From Patescibacteria group bacterium (GTDB taxonomy: Bacteria > Patescibacteriota > Patescibacteriia > UBA10025 > JAHIVO01), in NCBI GenBank assembly GCA_049325535.1, contig JBMOKY010000001.1:299386-363385 (forward strand): DNA of 64,000 bases. The letters are read 5' to 3'. Below are positions 11,454 through 18,800 of the stretch, piece after piece. Numbering within the stretch: position 1 is the first letter of the stretch; each line of letters begins with the position of its first letter. Made by a program: the position numbers and the translations under genes. The notes beneath the pieces were generated by a model that saw nothing but the letters and a program-made list of their open reading frames with translations, had not been told where the DNA came from and made no database searches.

Positions 11454-11476
11454 CGGGTAATTGGCAAAAATACGCA

Positions 11477-11503
11477 TTAGCACTCTTGACGTGAGAGTGC
11501 TAA
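11477..11503 (+). promoter_or_regulatory. CIRCE operator (HrcA binding site) overlapping hrcA promoter
   Basis: TTAGCACTC-N9-GAGTGCTAA perfect inverted repeat; TTGACG inside spacer and TTATAAT downstream. Confidence 0.85.
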
Positions 11504-11530
11504 TTGATTTATAATACACTTGCGTAGCAT

Positions 11531-12245: not shown

Positions 12246-12758
12246 ATGGAAGACAAGAAAGAACCAAAAGATAGTTTGAAGGAAAAAATTACCGATGTGG
12301 AAAAAATCGCCGCTGAATTAAAACTGGCGCAGCAAAAGATGGAAGAGTACATGAACGGTTGGAAACGGGCGAAGGCGGATTATCTCAATCTGAAACGCGA
12401 ATCGGAAAAAAAAGAACAGGAACTTGTTCAATTCGCCAATGCGGGACTAATTTTGCAACTCTTGCCCGTCTATGACAATTTTAAACTCGCCTGGAAACAT
12501 ATACCAAATGAACAGGTGAAGGTCGAGTGGGTGATCGGCATCGAGCATATCAAAAAACAATTCGGCGATATTCTGAAAAATCTGGGTATCGAAGAGATCA
12601 AAACCGTCGGTGAATCATTTAACCCTGAACTGCACGAGGCGGTGGCCAAAGAAAAGAAAGACGGTTTGAAGACGGATGTGGTATTTGAAGAAGTGAAGTC
12701 CGGGTATACATTGTTCGGAAAAGTGCTGGAACCGGCCAAGGTGAAGGTTGCCGCCTAG
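12246..12758 (+). CDS. grpE: nucleotide exchange factor GrpE
   Basis: Coiled-coil N-term then conserved GrpE core; ATG 12246 chosen (track 12156 overlaps hrcA). Confidence 0.85.
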   Translation: MEDKKEPKDSLKEKITDVEKIAAELKLAQQKMEEYMNGWKRAKADYLNLKRESEKKEQELVQFANAGLILQLLPVYDNFKLAWKHIPNEQVKVEWVIGIEHIKKQFGDILKNLGIEEIKTVGESFNPELHEAVAKEKKDGLKTDVVFEEVKSGYTLFGKVLEPAKVKVAA

Positions 12759-12881
12759 GCAATCCTGAACTCGATTCAGGATCTGAACGATTTAACAATG
12801 GAGATCCCGAAACAAGTTCGGGATGAGGAATAGAAAATTACTAATTCATTAAGCCCATTCGGGCAGCAAGGAACCAAACCT

Positions 12882-13310: not shown

Positions 13311-13362
13311 ATAGCACCTCAATCGTGAGGAAGACGGGCGCGGCCAACCCACATCAAACGGG

Positions 13363-13842
13363 TTGGCGCCCCGAAGCCAGAAGTATGAATTAGAAACCCC
13401 CTTTCGTTCTGCTTCTGGCTCCGGAGCGAATGCTCCGCGCGCGATCATCATCCCTATGCCTATCCAATTCGACAATTTCAACAGTAACCGGTTTTCCGGC
13501 GCCAACGGCGCGGGTAACGGCAATGACAGCCGTTCGGAGCGTATCCGCATCGACGCGCGCTGTCCCGTCTGCCAGTCGCCGTACGATTTCAACCGCATCG
13601 ACGTGATCCAGGAAGCTGACGGCGCCACGCTGATGTATATCAAATGTGGCGTCTGCCAATCGGCCGCTATGTCACTGATCGCGCTCGGGGCGCAGGGTCT
13701 CAAAGTCGCCAGCACCCTGACTGATCTGGAGCGCCATGAAGTACTGCGGTTTCAGGACAACGAACGGGTGAAGAGTGAGGATGTCTTAGCACTGCATCAG
13801 TTGCTTGAGCAGCCGATTGATAATTTTCTTAATTCATTCTAA
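13363..13842 (+). CDS. hypothetical protein with CxxC...CxxC zinc-ribbon; start uncertain
   Basis: ORF in heat-shock locus; CPVCQSPYD...CGVCQS; low-complexity G/N-rich N-term; no SD identified. Confidence 0.45.
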   Translation: MAPRSQKYELETPFRSASGSGANAPRAIIIPMPIQFDNFNSNRFSGANGAGNGNDSRSERIRIDARCPVCQSPYDFNRIDVIQEADGATLMYIKCGVCQSAAMSLIALGAQGLKVASTLTDLERHEVLRFQDNERVKSEDVLALHQLLEQPIDNFLNSF

Positions 13843-13913
13843 ACCCTCATTGTCGCCTCGACTGAAACGGAGAGGCCCTCATGACCGCAGTGACGGGCAG
13901 CCAACGGCATAAT

Positions 13914-13941
13914 GATCTCTCCACTTCGGTCGAGATGACAG
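13914..13941 (+). repeat. 28-nt palindromic repeat copy A (GATCTCTCCACTTCGGTCGAGATGACAG)
   Basis: 27/28 identical to 18168..18195; contains CTTCGG tetraloop hairpin. Confidence 0.6.
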
Positions 13942-14009
13942 ATGGGCAGTATCATCCATCTCACCAATAGTAATTAACCAACCATTAGAAAGCAATTAAC
14001 CAAACAACT

Positions 14010-15923
14010 ATGTCAAAAATACTCGGTATTGATCTCGGAACAACCAACTCCTGCATGGCTATCATCGAGGGTGGTGAGCCGAAAGTTCTCGAAAACAAAG
14101 AAGGTAATCGCACCACGCCCTCGGTGGTCGCTATCTCCAAAACCGGCGAACGCCTGGTTGGGCAAGTAGCTAAGCGCCAAGCCGTTACCAATCACCAGAA
14201 CACCGTTTTTTCCGTGAAGCGTCTGATCGGTCGCCACTGGAATGACGAAGAAGTACAGCATGATGTGAAAACCATGCCGTACTCTATTGAGCAAGCAGGG
14301 GAAGGTGTCAAAGTAAAAATGGTAGATAAACTCTACACACCGCAAGAAGTCTCAGCCATGATTCTTCAGAAATTGAAAGCTGATGCAGAGGCAAAGCTGG
14401 GTGAAAAAATCGAAGAAGCAGTGATTACCGTTCCTGCCTATTTTGACGACTCACAGCGCCAGGCCACCAAGGACGCAGGTGAAATCGCCGGCCTTAAAGT
14501 AAAACGTATTATCAATGAACCAACCGCCGCCGCACTGGCCTACGGATTTGATAAGAAAAAGAATCAGCAAGTAGCAGTCTACGACCTGGGTGGTGGTACG
14601 TTTGATATTTCCATCTTGGACATTTCCGAAGACACGGTCGAAGTGAAATCAACCAATGGTGACACCCACTTGGGTGGTGACGACTTTGACAAGCGGATCA
14701 TCGACTGGTTGGTTGAGGAATTCAACAAAGACCAAGGTATCAATCTCGGCAATGACCAAATGGCACTCCAGCGCCTGAAGGAAGCCGCAGAAAAAGCCAA
14801 GATTGAATTATCCACCACCAGTGAAACTGAAATCAATCTGCCCTTCATTACCACGGATGCTTCTGGTCCGAAACACATGAATCTCAAACTCACTCGCGCC
14901 AAACTTGAGACGCTCGTGGCTGACCTCATCGAAAAAACTATTGAACCAGTCAAGAAAGCACTGGCTGACGCTAAACTGGAAACCAAAGATATCGAAGAGG
15001 TGATCATGGTCGGTGGTATGACCCGTATGCCCAAAGTGCTGGAAACCGTAGAACAATTCTTCGGCAAAAAACCCCACATCGGTGTGAATCCTGACGAAGT
15101 GGTCGCTGTCGGCGCTGCAGTACAAGCTGGCGTGCTCCAAGGTGATGTAAAAGATGTGCTCCTGCTCGACGTGACTCCGTTGACTCTCGGTATCGAAACC
15201 CTCGGTGGCGTCTCCACTCCACTCATCGAACGCAACACCACCATCCCGACGACCAAATCGCAAGTATTCTCCACCGCAGCTGACAATCAGACTTCAGTAG
15301 AGGTCCACGTATTGCAGGGCGAACGTCCCATGGCCGGGGATAATAAAACGCTGGGACGATTTATCCTCTCTGGCATTCCGCCATCACCACGTGGCGTACC
15401 GCAGGTGGAAGTATCATTCGACATTGATGCCAACGGTATTCTCAACGTGAAGGCAAAAGACAAAGCATCTGGCAAAGAGCAATCCATCACTATTACGGCT
15501 TCATCAGGCCTATCCAAGGAAGAAGTCGAGAAAATGAAACAGGATGCCCAGGCGCATGCAGCCGAGGATACCAAGAAGAAAGAATTGATTGACCAGCGCA
15601 ATACTGCAGAAACCCTCGTCTACACCGCGGAAAAAGCACTGAAGGATGCGGGTGACAAAGTCAAAGATGATGTGAAGAAAGAAATTGAAGAAAAGATCAA
15701 AGTGGTCAAAGACGTGAAAGATAAGGATGATGTGGCAGCTATCAAGAAAGCAGTGGAAGATCTGAATCAAACGGTGCAGAAGATTGGTCAAGCGATGTAT
15801 GGTCAGCAACAGAAGGCTCCAGAAGGCGCAAAAGGCACGGAAGGCGATAAGGCTCAAGGTGCAAAAGGCTCTGCTCCAGTCGATGCAGAGTACGAGGATG
15901 TCAAAAAGGAAGACAAGAAGTAA
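14010..15923 (+). CDS. dnaK: molecular chaperone DnaK (Hsp70)
   Basis: Full-length Hsp70: [24 protein letters not shown]-like motifs. Confidence 0.97.
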
Positions 15924-15959
15924 TTAACAACCGCGCCCTCGGCTAACCACCGGGGGCGT

Positions 15960-16571
15960 TTGAGGGAAAATAATATGACATTTCAAGACGATATTAATGG
16001 AGCTATTCGAGAGATAGAGGGGCGAGGTTCGCAAGATTTATTTTTGAAAATTATTGAAGCTCGTAGTTTTTTGGCTGTTTCTTTTGAGCAGTATACTCAA
16101 AATAAAAACCAGAGCGTTCAATTATTTACCGATTCGTATTACACTTATCATTATTTTGCTTATGTAAATTTCTTTTATTCCTTGAAGGAAAGAACTGCTC
16201 AATTCATTAATAAATATTTGCGACTAGGCAATCCAATAGATGACGTAAGTTATCATAGAATTAGTCATAATGAGGAGGCACAAAAGGTTTTTAAAAAAAT
16301 ATTTGATTTCTTTGCTGATCCAGAATTTAAGTCAATTTCATCTGCAAGAAAAACGATGGTTCATCGTAGTCAAGATTATATTTCAGCAATACAGATAAAG
16401 GATTCAGCTAGCGCTCCTCAGCAAACTCCTCAGGTAAAGTTAGATAAAGATATTCTAGATAAGCCGAATGAAAAACTTAGTATTATTTTGATAAAAATAG
16501 TTGAATGTATTATTGATGAATTAAAGGAAGCTCAAAGTGAAAAGGGTGCAATTGATAAAGGTTCAGCCTGA
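15960..16571 (+). CDS. AT-rich orphan gene, possible HEPN-like (R-x4-H) protein
   Basis: GC visibly far below flanks; 203 aa helical; SARKTMVHRSQ contains R-x4-H; own hairpin terminator downstream. Confidence 0.55.
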   Translation: MRENNMTFQDDINGAIREIEGRGSQDLFLKIIEARSFLAVSFEQYTQNKNQSVQLFTDSYYTYHYFAYVNFFYSLKERTAQFINKYLRLGNPIDDVSYHRISHNEEAQKVFKKIFDFFADPEFKSISSARKTMVHRSQDYISAIQIKDSASAPQQTPQVKLDKDILDKPNEKLSIILIKIVECIIDELKEAQSEKGAIDKGSA

Positions 16572-16628
16572 ATTATGCAGAGATGAACAATTTTACGTCC
16601 TAATTCATCATAAGGGTGCGGTAGTGGG

Positions 16629-16695
16629 GGCCCGCCTCGGCTCGCGCCCGCTTCGACGAATCGAGGCGAGTCGACGCGAGGCGGGTTTTTGGTAC
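16629..16695 (+). terminator. extended GC hairpin followed by GGGTTTTTGG
   Basis: cccgcctcg...cgaggcggg 9-bp outer stem plus inner pairing, then T-run. Confidence 0.5.
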
Positions 16696-16702
16696 GAAAA
16701 AT

Positions 16703-16798
16703 GCTTGTCATCGCGAGCTCCGTCTGCGGAGCGTGGCGATCTCCGTGACTATCCAACCGAGATTGCCGCGTCGCCTACGGCTCCTCGCAATGACAAGC
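16703..16798 (+). repeat. long hairpin element: inverted GCTTGTCATCGCGAG / CTCGCAATGACAAGC arms around about 66-nt loop
   Basis: 14/15 complementary arms; arms share GATGACAAG core with repeats at 13914, 18033, 18076, 18168. Confidence 0.5.
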
Positions 16799-16817
16799 GC
16801 TGTGGTATACTAATCGC

Positions 16818-17582
16818 ATGGAAGTGTATCAGGACATAATTAAATACATTAAAACTGCAGGTCAGAGGCTGAAAGAGCGCTCGGGGCATATTGAGGATAT
16901 TGGCATTCGAAAAAGGAATTTGACGGAAGAGGACATTCGGATTGAGCGGGAACTGAAAGAAATCATTACCAAAAATGATCCAACACATCAGGTGTACGCG
17001 GAAGAGGAGAACGCCGATTTTTTTGATGCCGAGGAAGTGTGGGTGATTGACCCGATCAGTGGCACGCATTTGTTTATCCAGGGCAAACCACATTACGCTA
17101 TCGTGGTGTCGCATCTCCATAAGGGCATTGTGCAGTTTGCCGCGGTGTACGATACATCTGCTGATGAATTATTTACTGCACAGCGAGGCAGTGGGGCATT
17201 CTTAAATGGCACGAAAATAATGGTTCAGCCTGCAAGCCCTGATAGACTGCGCGTGGTATTTAATAAATCAAATAAGTGGCCAGATGAAGTATTGGTGCAG
17301 AAAGTTTTGGATGGTTTACAGACGTACGAAGTGTTTCGTTTAGAAGCCTCGCATGCGTTGGGGGATTGCTACATAGCTTGTGGGCGATATAACGGTGTTA
17401 TCGTTTTGGCAAAAGATAGTTTTCCATCGTTTGCTGGAAGTCTCATGGTTCAGGAAGCTGGTGGAGAATACACCAATCAAAAAGGTGAGTCAGATATTAA
17501 ACCAGATAATCGGATATTTGTGGGTGGAGATCACGGCACACATTTTCGACTATTGGGGATGGTGCAAGAGATGCTGAAATAA
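16818..17582 (+). CDS. inositol monophosphatase family protein
   Basis: EEENADFFDAEEVWVIDPISGT (WxIDPIDGT motif). Confidence 0.85.
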   Translation: MEVYQDIIKYIKTAGQRLKERSGHIEDIGIRKRNLTEEDIRIERELKEIITKNDPTHQVYAEEENADFFDAEEVWVIDPISGTHLFIQGKPHYAIVVSHLHKGIVQFAAVYDTSADELFTAQRGSGAFLNGTKIMVQPASPDRLRVVFNKSNKWPDEVLVQKVLDGLQTYEVFRLEASHALGDCYIACGRYNGVIVLAKDSFPSFAGSLMVQEAGGEYTNQKGESDIKPDNRIFVGGDHGTHFRLLGMVQEMLK

Positions 17583-17617
17583 ATTCAGCATGAGGGCAAT
17601 TGTGATATACTGCCAAC

Positions 17618-17953
17618 ATGTCCCACACCATTAAACTAAAAAAGGACAAGTACAAAAGCGCACGGGGAGGGTACTCGCGGTTGCTAGATATTTCCTGCCA
17701 GAAATGCCAGAAGCCGGTTTTGGTGTACCAGAAGGACGGGCCGGGGAATTTGCGGCGGTTGTATCTGGATCGAATTATGAGTCCGGAGAAGCTGGTTGGG
17801 TTACAACAGCAGAGCATCGCCAGCCTCGCGCCGCTGAAGTGCGCGGGGTGCGGATTTGTGATGGGCATTCCGTATGTCTACGAAAAAGAAAAGCGAAAGG
17901 CCTTCCGCATTTTTCAGGACGCGGTGATAAAGAGGATTAGGAAGGTGGGGTAA
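17618..17953 (+). CDS. small basic C4 zinc-ribbon protein
   Basis: CQKCQ...CAGCG; 111 aa. Confidence 0.5.
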   Translation: MSHTIKLKKDKYKSARGGYSRLLDISCQKCQKPVLVYQKDGPGNLRRLYLDRIMSPEKLVGLQQQSIASLAPLKCAGCGFVMGIPYVYEKEKRKAFRIFQDAVIKRIRKVG

Positions 17954-18167
17954 GGGGTACATACATCTGTCATGCTGAATGTAATGAAGCATCCCCTGAC
18001 CGAAGGTCAGGAAATCCTTCGCGTCCGCTCAGGATGACAAGTGCGGAGAGGTGCTGGGGATCAAAGAATAAAAAACGTTTGTCACTTCGAGCCCATTCGA
18101 CTCCGCTCAGGGCAGGCTTCGTCGAGAAGTCTTTACGACGTCGGTTGCATGTAATAGGGGTCATAAG

Positions 18168-18195
18168 GATCTCTCCGCTTCGGTCGAGATGACAG
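18168..18195 (+). repeat. 28-nt palindromic repeat copy B (GATCTCTCCGCTTCGGTCGAGATGACAG)
   Basis: Near-identical to 13914..13941; sits in 350-nt repeat-dense non-coding stretch 17954-18306. Confidence 0.6.
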
Positions 18196-18306
18196 TCGGT
18201 GGTCAGCATTTCATGGCCCCTCGCCATAACAGGCATATCGTAAGACATGCCAAATCTTGCTCAAAAGGCCTATTTGGCGTACAATGGGTAGTTCCAGGAG
18301 AGGTTA

Positions 18307-18800
18307 ATGAATTGGTACTATTTGCCGCTCATATGATAAAGAAACACGCGAAACACATAAAACCAAATGAATTGCTGGAAAAGGTGATGAACGCAGGGAC
18401 GAGTTGGCATCATCATTGCCTGTCCCCACGGTGCTATGTCAATGATACCGGCCAGGAGATCGTTTTACTGGAGGCGGGGAATGACATGTTTTACTGCGGC
18501 AGTACCGCAGAATTGCGAGAACAGCTGGAGGAGCATGCCTATCAGATTTCCAAACCGAAACGTAAAAGCGCTCAACCTATCGCGCACGAAGCTTTGAACA
18601 TCGTTCGTGGGTATCACCGCCAGGGCGTCAAATGGCATTTCCATATTGCGATGCCGCGTTGTTTTCTCAGTATGCAGGATCAGTATTTGCTCATAATCGA
18701 AAATGACGATACGTCCACCAAGCATGAGTGGACATTTGCCCAGCATCCGGTGGAGCTGGTACGGGCGATTGATGACTACTATCTCGGACGGAAACGGTAG
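18307..18800 (+). CDS. hypothetical protein with duplicated W-H-x-H...PRC motif
   Basis: SD AGGAGAGG 5 nt upstream of ATG 18307; TSWHHHCLSPRCY and VKWHFHIAMPRCF. Confidence 0.55.

Follow-up and report, generated by a model that had tools for sequence, protein, structure and literature searches.

What are the short palindromes that lie among the heat-shock genes of a Patescibacteria group bacterium, and what might act on them? The question arises from a 64,000-nt stretch of its contig JBMOKY010000001.1 (assembly GCA_049325535.1, positions 299,386 to 363,385 of the forward strand), here called the window, in which the 28-mer GATCTCTCCRCTTCGGTCGAGATGACAG occurs twice, at 13914-13941 and 18168-18195. 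Both copies are arms of inverted pairs of hairpin units. The units probably belong, in class and in mode of action alike, with the repetitive extragenic palindromes (REPs) that carry a CGTC or TGTC tag and with what is named the Ssn-related motif (SRM), hairpins on which, to judge from Neisseria, a small GIY-YIG nuclease of the Ssn type would act. This class is already known and very widespread; what the window adds is a variant shape that lies outside the published pattern.

Hairpin units in the window

An earlier note on this DNA had described the two copies as near-identical 28-nt units, and the description holds: none of 100 dinucleotide-preserving shuffles contained a match to the 28-mer, and the stretch common to both copies is really 34 nt long, at 94% identity. 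The related arms that it saw at 16703, 16784, 18033 and 18076 are all present, and the first two do form an inverted repeat: their 15 nt are 93% complementary, and 66 nt separate them. The core that the units share is not GATGACAAG, as had been proposed, but the terminal TGTCAY / RTGACA. The pieces quoted at the time are real, but they are not standalone elements, each being one arm of a larger inverted pair with its tags outward, and the inventory missed three units with decayed or CCTC tags (12758-12783, 12803-12828 and 17570-17595).

Four of the inverted pairs are bounded by TGTCA...TGACA: E1 (13851-13940), E2 (16706-16795), E3 (17968-18039) and E4 (18080-18194). Altogether the window holds 11 units, arranged as five tag-outward inverted pairs and one solo unit, all within 12.76-18.19 kb, where they surround grpE, hsp20, dnaK, an inositol monophosphatase gene and a zinc-ribbon gene. 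Over the rest of the window, ~58 kb, there is no other unit, nor is there one in ~10 kb upstream and ~5 kb downstream of it. Every unit in the window is intergenic or sits at a stop codon or gene end, between genes of the same strand, and both orientations relative to the genes are found.

A unit is a hairpin of 26-52 nt, consisting of a 5'-YGTC tag, a 5-bp stem that starts with AT, GA, a variable inner mini-hairpin, GA again, the second half of the stem, and a C. On the tag strand it can be written 5'-YGTC / A-T-x-y-z / G-A-S (inner mini-hairpin) S-G-A / z'-y'-x'-A-T / C. I will refer to subtypes by the full 5-nt stem, A-T-x-y-z, since the stem triplet defines the subtype; those observed are ATTGC, ATCTC, ATTCC, ATTTC, ATCGC, ATTCT, ATCCT, ATCCC, ATGCT and ACTTC. 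The inner part is often G-C-G-N-A-G-C-like or else a longer G+C-rich hairpin; in the left arm of E4 it is a 37-nt insert, similar to one found in other contigs (e.g., L163). The 28-mer itself is the reverse complement of an ATCTC unit, TGTCATCTCGACCGAAGYGGAGAGATC.

The eight main arms of the window have the 5-bp stem, GA...GA and inner hairpin, with 11-37 nt separating the two halves of the stem; all eight carry the tag TGTC and seven the tail C. The three extra units, found by way of related genomes and a scan for longer stems, have instead an 8-bp stem and a 5-nt loop. Their tag is CCTC or the decayed GGCA, and all three have the tail C. The units are as follows.

12758-12783, + strand: unit with decayed tag GGCA, 8-bp stem ATCCTGAA/TTCAGGAT, 5-nt loop and tail C; left arm of the grpE-hsp20 pair; DNA fold -6.7 kcal/mol, z -4.8
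12803-12828, - strand: CCTC-tagged unit CCTCATCCCGAACTTGTTTCGGGATC; right arm of the grpE-hsp20 pair; kept in the related genomes L294 and L296; DNA fold -7.3 kcal/mol, z -4.3
13851-13877, + strand: E1 left arm, TGTC-GCCTC-GACTGAAACGGA-GAGGC-C; the stem has GC for AT, with both sides changed
13914-13940, - strand: E1 right arm, copy 1 of the 28-mer, ATCTC type, tag strand TGTCATCTCGACCGAAGTGGAGAGATC; 70 nt upstream of the dnaK start
16706-16741, + strand: E2 left arm, TGTC-ATCGC-GAG[CTCCGTCTGCGGAG]CGTG-GCGAT-C; compared with the ATTGC type, both halves of this arm's stem are altered; DNA fold -11.2 kcal/mol, z -3.0
16761-16795, - strand: E2 right arm, canonical ATTGC type, TGTCATTGCGAG...GCAATC
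17570-17595, - strand: solo CCTC-tagged unit CCTCATGCTGAATTTATTTCAGCATC, over the stop codon of the inositol monophosphatase gene; DNA fold -6.8 kcal/mol, z -5.1
17968-17993, + strand: E3 left arm, ATGCT type, TGTCATGCTGAATGTAATGAAGCATC
18013-18039, - strand: E3 right arm, ATCCT type, TGTCATCCTGAGCGGACGCGAAGGAT-T, with tail T instead of C
18080-18131, + strand: E4 left arm, ACTTC stem, enclosing the 37-nt insert GAGCCCATTCGACTCCGCTCAGGGCAGGCTTCGTCGA
18168-18194, - strand: E4 right arm, copy 2 of the 28-mer, TGTCATCTCGACCGAAGCGGAGAGATC

The earlier note took the repeats to be of the REP type or of the type of miniature inverted-repeat transposable elements, and in kind it was right: tag, AT-started stem, tail and inverted dimers match the CGTC-tagged REP superfamily defined by Di Nocera, De Gregorio and Rocco (BMC Genomics 2013, PMC3733652). 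In that superfamily, which includes dRS3 of Neisseria and RPE-4 and RPE-6 of Rickettsia, the tag is often TGTC or CCTC, the first stem pairs are A-T/T-A, the tail is short and unpaired, and the repeats occur mostly as inverted dimers, often of two different subtypes (PMC3733652).

Whether a unit is a hairpin or only looks like one can be judged from the way it varies, and a co-variation test had been asked for in the earlier note. For this purpose 54 short-class units were picked by tag, GA/GA and tail only, leaving the queried 23-mer (see below) out and making no use of stem pairing. In their alignment 85% of the cells of the proposed arm hairpin are paired, and sliding the partner gives 27-52%. 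Cells in which both sides have changed number 62, against 22 +/- 3.9 in shuffles (none of 500 as high), with the stem triplet and the S-S pair switching from G-C to C-G or U-A and back. The arm hairpin covaries, and the hairpin-forming palindrome is supported by compensatory changes.

The ends of the unit are also conserved. Of 502 ATTGC units, 476 start their tag with T or C. The constancy of GTC is not independent evidence, because GTC was demanded by the unit search itself, but the tail C, which lay outside every query, is present in 478 of the same 502 units and in 115 of 123 ATCTC units. (Once the tag is loosened, about half of the raw hits of the unit finder are background.) Comparison of five orthologous soil loci gives an identity of 95% for an unqueried ATTCC arm, against 69% for the spacer and 65% for third codon positions of the neighbouring gene, so that the arms, unlike the spacer, are either constrained or homogenised.

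A tagged partner lies upstream of 54 out of 114 distinct ATCTC arms, with the tags outward and a median spacer of 29 nt; 49 of these partners are of a different subtype and five share the ATCTC stem, from which it follows that pairing between arms is not what is conserved. Folded as RNA, the pairs E1-E3 are much more stable than their shuffles whichever strand is taken (-31 to -56 kcal/mol, z -4.8 to -6.5), and E4 is no more stable than its shuffles (z -0.7). Arrangements besides inverted pairs exist too, since units or whole pairs stand in head-to-tail arrays in L246 (three tandem ATTTC units of 44 nt), L263, L215 and L271.

Spread of the units and their linkage to small GIY-YIG genes

The E2-type pattern, TGTCATYGCGAG-N50-80-CTCGCRATGACA, occurs in 41 viral contigs of IMG/VR and in at least 120 contigs of GTDB species representatives, and the 23-mer TCTCCRCTTCGGTCGAGATGACA in at least 120 contigs of metagenomes, whose sources include soil, freshwater and fermenters. 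Genome contigs with these unit types come from some 13 phyla. The carriers are found among Bacteroidota (Mucilaginibacter, Flavobacterium), Patescibacteria, Chloroflexota, Planctomycetota, Cyanobacteria and Pseudomonadota, and further among Desulfobacterota, Acidobacteriota, Gemmatimonadota, Verrucomicrobiota, Bacillota and Omnitrophota. Besides having this spread over phyla, the units turn over between related genomes (described in the next section). A literature search with the sequence strings brought up only unrelated primer matches.

A partner for such hairpins is known from Neisseria. Chenal et al. (Nat Commun 2025, PMC11893778) extended dRS3 to an oriented hairpin, the NTS, and found NTS-like motifs, the SRM, flanking genes of a family of ~94-aa single-domain GIY-YIG proteins, Ssn, described there as the first site-specific single-strand DNA endonucleases. 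Four purified Ssn enzymes bind the hairpin solely as single-stranded DNA, on one strand, and make their cut a few nucleotides upstream; cleavage depends most on the three bases that precede the palindrome, and binding on the C that follows it (PMC11893778). In N. meningitidis the Ssn/NTS system lowers transformation by DNA carrying NTS-gene-NTS (PMC11893778).

The units found here are likewise linked to small GIY-YIG genes. The first case was a metagenome locus (L211) with a small GIY-YIG open reading frame (ORF) between a tagged unit and an ATCTC unit. An iterated profile search through all six-frame ORFs of 2.09 Mb of fetched loci then gave eight GIY-YIG ORFs, confirmed as PF01541, all eight with units no more than 250 nt away and at least three cleanly flanked on both sides, tags outward. 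The ORFs enclosed by unit pairs up to 1.5 kb apart form a set of 53 distinct sequences, in which two clusters have at least three members: GIY-YIG, with five of the 53, from unrelated contigs, and a helix-turn-helix (HTH) protein, found in four viral contigs that are related to one another. No cargo other than small GIY-YIG genes recurs between paired arms across lineages.

The second cargo is a matter of one phage group: proteins of ~96-120 aa with a Cys-rich N-terminus and a C-terminal HTH (like HTH_23 or sigma-70 region 4), lying between ATTGC or ATTCT units. As partner genes, four-helix-bundle "23S rRNA intervening sequence" proteins were considered too and given up, as nothing in the clustering of enclosed ORFs supports them. 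The loci concerned are listed here.

L196, 106-463: GIY-YIG gene flanked on both sides, tags outward
L262, 518-908: GIY-YIG gene flanked on both sides, tags outward
L167, 2919-3168: GIY-YIG gene flanked on both sides, tags outward
L086 and L033: GIY-YIG genes flanked less cleanly, with several units on each side
L003, 7707-8159: phage HTH protein
L007, 5511-6628: phage HTH protein
L013, 5834-6254: phage HTH protein
L042, 8172-8587: phage HTH protein

Starting from the protein side leads to the same place: tagged units flank the GIY-YIG gene in four of four viral loci and in four of four long genomic contigs, among which is the complete genome of a member of the Peregrinibacteria (CP064978.1). 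One of these eight loci, L287, has CGTCATTCCCGCGAAGGCGGGAATCCAG, the exact Neisseria NTS consensus, on both sides of its GIY-YIG gene, and for that reason connects these proteins to Ssn; its product is 44% identical to a Woesebacteria GIY-YIG protein that is itself flanked by ATTGC units. In the GIY-YIG clade taken from the best 120 matches (P0241-P0360), most clusters come only from contigs shorter than 3 kb, which is to be expected of repeat-flanked multi-copy elements that break short-read assemblies.

Pairs with and without a gene are made from the same parts. The commonest gene-less pair, ATTCC/ATCTC (18 of 54), has the arm types that flank the GIY-YIG gene in L196, and ATCCC and ATCTC flank the genes in L262 and L167. 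Gene-less pairs thus carry the same two ends as flank the small enzyme gene elsewhere, and they show presence, absence and replacement between relatives.

Turnover of pairs around the heat-shock genes

All genes of the unit-bearing region lie on the + strand, in the order CIRCE, hrcA, grpE, a pair, hsp20, a small Cys-rich ORF, E1 and dnaK, followed by a low-GC HEPN gene, a terminator, E2, the phosphatase gene, the solo unit, the zinc-ribbon gene, E3 and E4, and the next gene. Two relatives, L294 (GCA_034678405.1) and L296 (GCA_964419765.1), whose DnaK is 89-91% identical to that of the window, keep the series hrcA-grpE-hsp20-ORF-dnaK and permit a comparison site by site. The site upstream of dnaK runs from the end of the small ORF to the dnaK leader, both conserved, and holds a different pair in each of the three genomes:

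Window: GCCTC + ATCTC
L294: ATCCT + ACTCT
L296: ATGCT + ATCCC

Different pairs at one site in related genomes mean that the elements turn over. Elsewhere in the operon, an ATGCT/ATCCC pair stands downstream of hsp20 in both relatives and is absent from the window, and after grpE the relatives have an ATTCT/ATTCT pair where the window has a different left arm. In L296, moreover, one pair is present twice; the copies lie about 500 nt from each other and have an identical 31-nt spacer.

Downstream of dnaK the gene content differs completely (HEPN and phosphatase genes in the window, Abi_alpha in L296, other ORFs in L294), with pairs at the junctions. The low-G+C HEPN gene and the presence of other genes there in the relatives, such as Abi_alpha, give this region the look of a variable, defence-like slot, and, taken as an analogy, the pairs at junctions of variable genes resemble the clustering of NTS around variable genes in Neisseria. 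The zinc-ribbon and 203-aa genes, tried as synteny anchors, were not matched by homologues where these were expected in L294 and L296; tblastx found a zinc-ribbon homologue at 9975-10288 of L294, and the region downstream of dnaK is not syntenic. A comparison with an empty site by way of the phosphatase gene was given up, its nearest homologue being 57% identical. Exact look-ups of DnaK, HSP20 and the phosphatase found one Logan contig only, from the same strain.

Some other features of the region deserve mention. A CIRCE-type perfect inverted repeat, TTAGCACTC-N9-GAGTGCTAA, lies at 11475-11505, just upstream of hrcA (start 11531), where the HrcA operator of a heat-shock operon is expected. 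A long untagged hairpin, ...CCCCGAAGCCAGAAG...CTTCTGGCTCCGGAG..., is found downstream of hsp20 (~13355-13440), with sequence and pairing kept at ~6270-6335 of L294 and ~770-835 of L296; it could be a terminator or a regulatory RNA. The small Cys-rich ORF (13456-13842, + strand, two CxxC pairs) has ~70-80% amino-acid identity to ORFs at 6414-6806 of L294 and 967-1305 of L296, where the public gene calls put an ORF on the opposite strand. The HEPN_Cthe2314-like gene (15960-16571) has 29-34% G+C within a region of ~48% G+C and is followed by a long G+C-rich hairpin and T-run at 16625-16697. The sequence TGnTATACT-N6-ATG appears at 16803-16820 (phosphatase gene) and at 17603-17620 (zinc-ribbon gene); such an extended -10 box 6 nt before the start, with no Shine-Dalgarno sequence, suggests that both mRNAs are leaderless. 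The gene after the zinc-ribbon gene probably starts at 18309, after GGAGAGG, instead of at 18189.

What may act on the units, and how they compare with known systems

If the units work as their counterparts do in Neisseria, N. elongata, N. wadsworthii and Wolbachia, the hairpin would form when the tag strand becomes single-stranded, during DNA uptake, replication or transfer, and a single-domain GIY-YIG nuclease of ~90-100 aa (Ssn family) would bind it and nick the strand a few nucleotides 5' of the tag. Where two units form a tag-outward pair, one nick would fall on each strand, just outside the pair. The gene-less pairs, including the window's five, look like miniature derivatives of unit-GIY-YIG-unit modules and would be gained, lost and replaced at intergenic sites. 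From the analogy I infer that an Ssn-type enzyme binds and cuts these variants and that the source genome encodes one. The units may serve to restrict incoming single-stranded DNA, may be hotspots of recombination or turnover around variable genes, may help the pairs to spread, or may do nothing.

Several observations weigh against assigning the units to an Ssn-type nuclease. The 2.09 Mb of fetched loci were ascertained via the repeats, and the counts of 120 genome contigs and 120 metagenome contigs are lower bounds. No GIY-YIG gene occurs in the 64-kb window together with ~10 kb upstream and ~5 kb downstream (~79 kb), and the source contig contributes no GIY-YIG protein among the best 120 matches of the protein search. 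Isolated arms with 5-bp stems are marginally stable by DNA nearest-neighbour energies (-2.2 to -4.6 kcal/mol, z -0.03 to -1.6, in six of eight), so the case for the arm hairpin rests on covariation and not on energy; nearest-neighbour models credit tandem G.A pairs and GNA loops poorly. Where a stem in the fetched loci has one mismatch, the tag strand shows A.C in 23 cases and G.T in 9, the reverse of what simple selection for tag-strand pairing would give; strand-biased mutation or use of the complementary strand could account for it. Finally, the SRM string HGTCWYN(0-2)YYVSBRHN(0-5)WNVSBRGN(0-2)RNCYNB has no match in the window, its eight main arms included, nor in the 502 ATTGC or 123 ATCTC units, nor in any ATTTC, ATCGC, ATTCT or ATCCT unit; its 16 matches among 1273 detected units are all of classical ATTCC-CGC types. 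The string is a search heuristic, and these variants fall outside it. As the main arms fit neither the string nor the 8-9 bp stems of the described REP families, I file them as a variant architecture within the tagged-REP/SRM kind and not as members of the published motif.

The units might instead act mainly as RNA, either as intercistronic hairpins that protect mRNA from exonucleases or as sites of RNase processing or termination. A role of this sort, in mRNA protection or processing, has been proposed for the REPs of E. coli. Here it would suit the location of all units between same-strand genes or at their ends (grpE, hsp20, dnaK, phosphatase, zinc-ribbon), the strong folding of three whole pairs as RNA, and a C(UUCG)G tetraloop on the + strand of the 28-mer, whose R position there is A-U or G.U; the excess of A.C on the tag strand becomes G.U on the complementary strand, and many tagged REPs have been argued to be transcribed (PMC3733652). 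Yet Rfam gives no match at E<=1 on 13.7-18.4 kb (and only two tRNAs at gathering threshold in the whole window), no unit is followed by a T-run, and a promoter/terminator scan finds nothing coinciding with units, all of which leaves the earlier suggestion of small-RNA processing sites with no support. Moreover, units occur in both orientations relative to the genes, so that no single RNA strand is preserved, and with 49 of 54 pairs made of two subtypes the inter-arm pairing is not conserved. It is hard to see what the unpaired GTC tag and the tail C would do in RNA, but they match the positions recognised by Ssn, and SsnA does not bind RNA (PMC11893778). I consider a chiefly RNA-level function unlikely, although it is compatible with location and folding and does not exclude cleavage by an Ssn-type nuclease; the units may also affect the surrounding mRNAs.

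Another possibility, to which I give a minority share of belief, is that the units are inert relics in the source genome, left by a nuclease-bearing element since lost and kept because intergenic DNA decays slowly. The lack of a GIY-YIG gene in the ~79 kb examined speaks for it, as do the decayed parts (GGCA at 12758, CCTC at 12828 and 17595, tail T at 18013, the GC-for-AT stem at 13855) and the failure of E4 to fold any longer as a long hairpin. Against it, both ATCTC arms are intact and agree with the 23-mer that at least 120 contigs have kept, the rate of change of arms elsewhere is far below that of neutral sites, and the site upstream of dnaK is filled in all three related genomes by different pairs, which implies continuing gain or replacement. 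In addition, among genomes that hold over 200 SRM repeats 81% have a gene for an Ssn homolog (PMC11893778), which would bear on the source genome if its copy number were that high.

Two other explanations are effectively excluded. Mobilisation of classical REPs or REPINs by RAYT, an IS200/IS605-like Y1 transposase, or derivation from miniature IS200/IS605 elements, would draw on a close general likeness: both are short hairpins with an unpaired tag of four nucleotides, form inverted doublets, lie between genes and follow a single-strand logic (PMC3116915, PMC3733652). It is nevertheless very improbable: the tag is YGTC and not GTAG; no RAYT, other transposase or associated enzyme has been found flanked by CGTC/TGTC repeats (PMC3733652); GIY-YIG is the sole cross-lineage recurrent family among the 53 enclosed ORFs (with no direct Pfam Y1 screen made over all loci); and RAYT-linked REPs are described as largely species-specific, whereas the 23-mer here is identical across very different environments. 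Chance similarity, or units lying inside unrecognised coding frames, has a negligible claim. It is true that ORFs of 100 and 92 aa span the repeats and that both are called as genes on the Logan contig, with no Pfam match (16537-16839, +, 100 aa; ~17970-18164, -, 64 aa, within the ORF at 17970-18248). But the shuffles yielded not one 28-mer match, hundreds of copies lie elsewhere in both orientations beside different neighbours, the changes follow base-pair covariation and not codons, and related genomes hold different pairs at the same position; covariation and replacement of pairs together effectively exclude the coding frame that the earlier note had itself raised. The gene calls are probably spurious, translated repeat units, and the peptides ...LAMT, ...RNDK and ...RSR* recur in ORFs across the fetched loci because those ORFs translate the units.

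Granted that the units are tagged-REP/SRM hairpins acted on by an Ssn-type nuclease, one may go further and propose, tentatively and as something conceivable more than probable, that gene-less pairs of two subtypes belong among non-autonomous mobile elements, and that Ssn-type GIY-YIG nucleases encoded between the same arm types copy or move them in trans. The proposal is compatible with the observations that one site holds different pairs, that the duplicates in L296 share their spacer, that gene-less and gene-bearing forms share arm pairs and that GIY-YIG contigs are often very short. No target-site duplication is evident at the four main pairs, and the ends of a pair are independent hairpins of different subtypes, not one terminal inverted repeat. 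GIY-YIG/Ssn proteins are not known to have transposition activity. If true, unit-GIY-YIG-unit modules would be a prokaryotic class of mobile element driven by a GIY-YIG nuclease, spread over at least 13 phyla and phage, and their recognition hairpin (5-bp stem, tandem G.A, GNA mini-hairpin) would differ from the NTS/SRM as published.

For the source genome alone the finding is ordinary: dispersed repeats of a known class between heat-shock genes. Its interest lies in the search for enzymes. Each pair of Ssn enzyme and hairpin is a potential tool, and the discovery of such pairs is steered by the published motif definition, which misses large cross-phylum subfamilies of target hairpins with bipartite stems (ATTGC, ATCTC, ATTCC, ATTTC and others), some of them from phage contigs and from bacteria of the Candidate Phyla Radiation. 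The list of likely pairs of enzyme and substrate becomes longer in this way. The repeat-spanning ORFs account for a common source of spurious "hypothetical proteins" in metagenome annotation, and the gain and replacement of gene-less pairs at fixed intergenic sites bears on whether the repeat-ssn-repeat module is a mobile element.

How do the units stand with respect to the known systems? They have much in common with the GTAG REPs, REPINs and BIMEs served by RAYT (Bertels and Rainey 2011, PMC3116915): tagged hairpins that act single-stranded, inverted doublets, lack of autonomy and one dedicated repeat-flanked gene. The tag of those systems, however, is GTAG, their enzyme is an HUH/Y1 transposase with a fold and chemistry other than those of GIY-YIG, and REPINs are described as lineage-specific, whereas the arm sequences here are common across phyla.

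The likeness to the CGTC-tagged REPs is closer, extending to the terminal tag, the AT-started stem, the short tail, inverted dimers of mixed subtypes and intergenic sites between co-directional or convergent genes. The described families, CGTC-1 to -4, have stems of 8-9 bp and loops of 4-5 nt and occur in five phyla, mostly in alpha-Proteobacteria (PMC3733652). The units at 12758, 12803 and 17570 (8-bp stem, 5-nt loop) fit them closely; the eight main arms, with their bipartite stems, lie outside those dimensions. The subtypes found here also reach Patescibacteria, Chloroflexota, Planctomycetota, Cyanobacteria, Bacillota, Omnitrophota and viral contigs.

With the SRM/NTS the differences are of shape: the NTS has a continuous 8-bp stem and a 4-nt loop, whereas the units here have a 5-bp stem, GA...GA and a mini-hairpin with GNA-type loops or inserts of up to 37 nt, and the first base of their tag is mostly T. 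What the two share is an HGTC tag 5' of an AT-started palindrome with a C straight after it, so that the units here agree with the NTS at exactly the critical positions. In both, units occur solo and as inverted copies, flank genes for single-domain GIY-YIG proteins of ~90-100 aa and cluster around particular genes.

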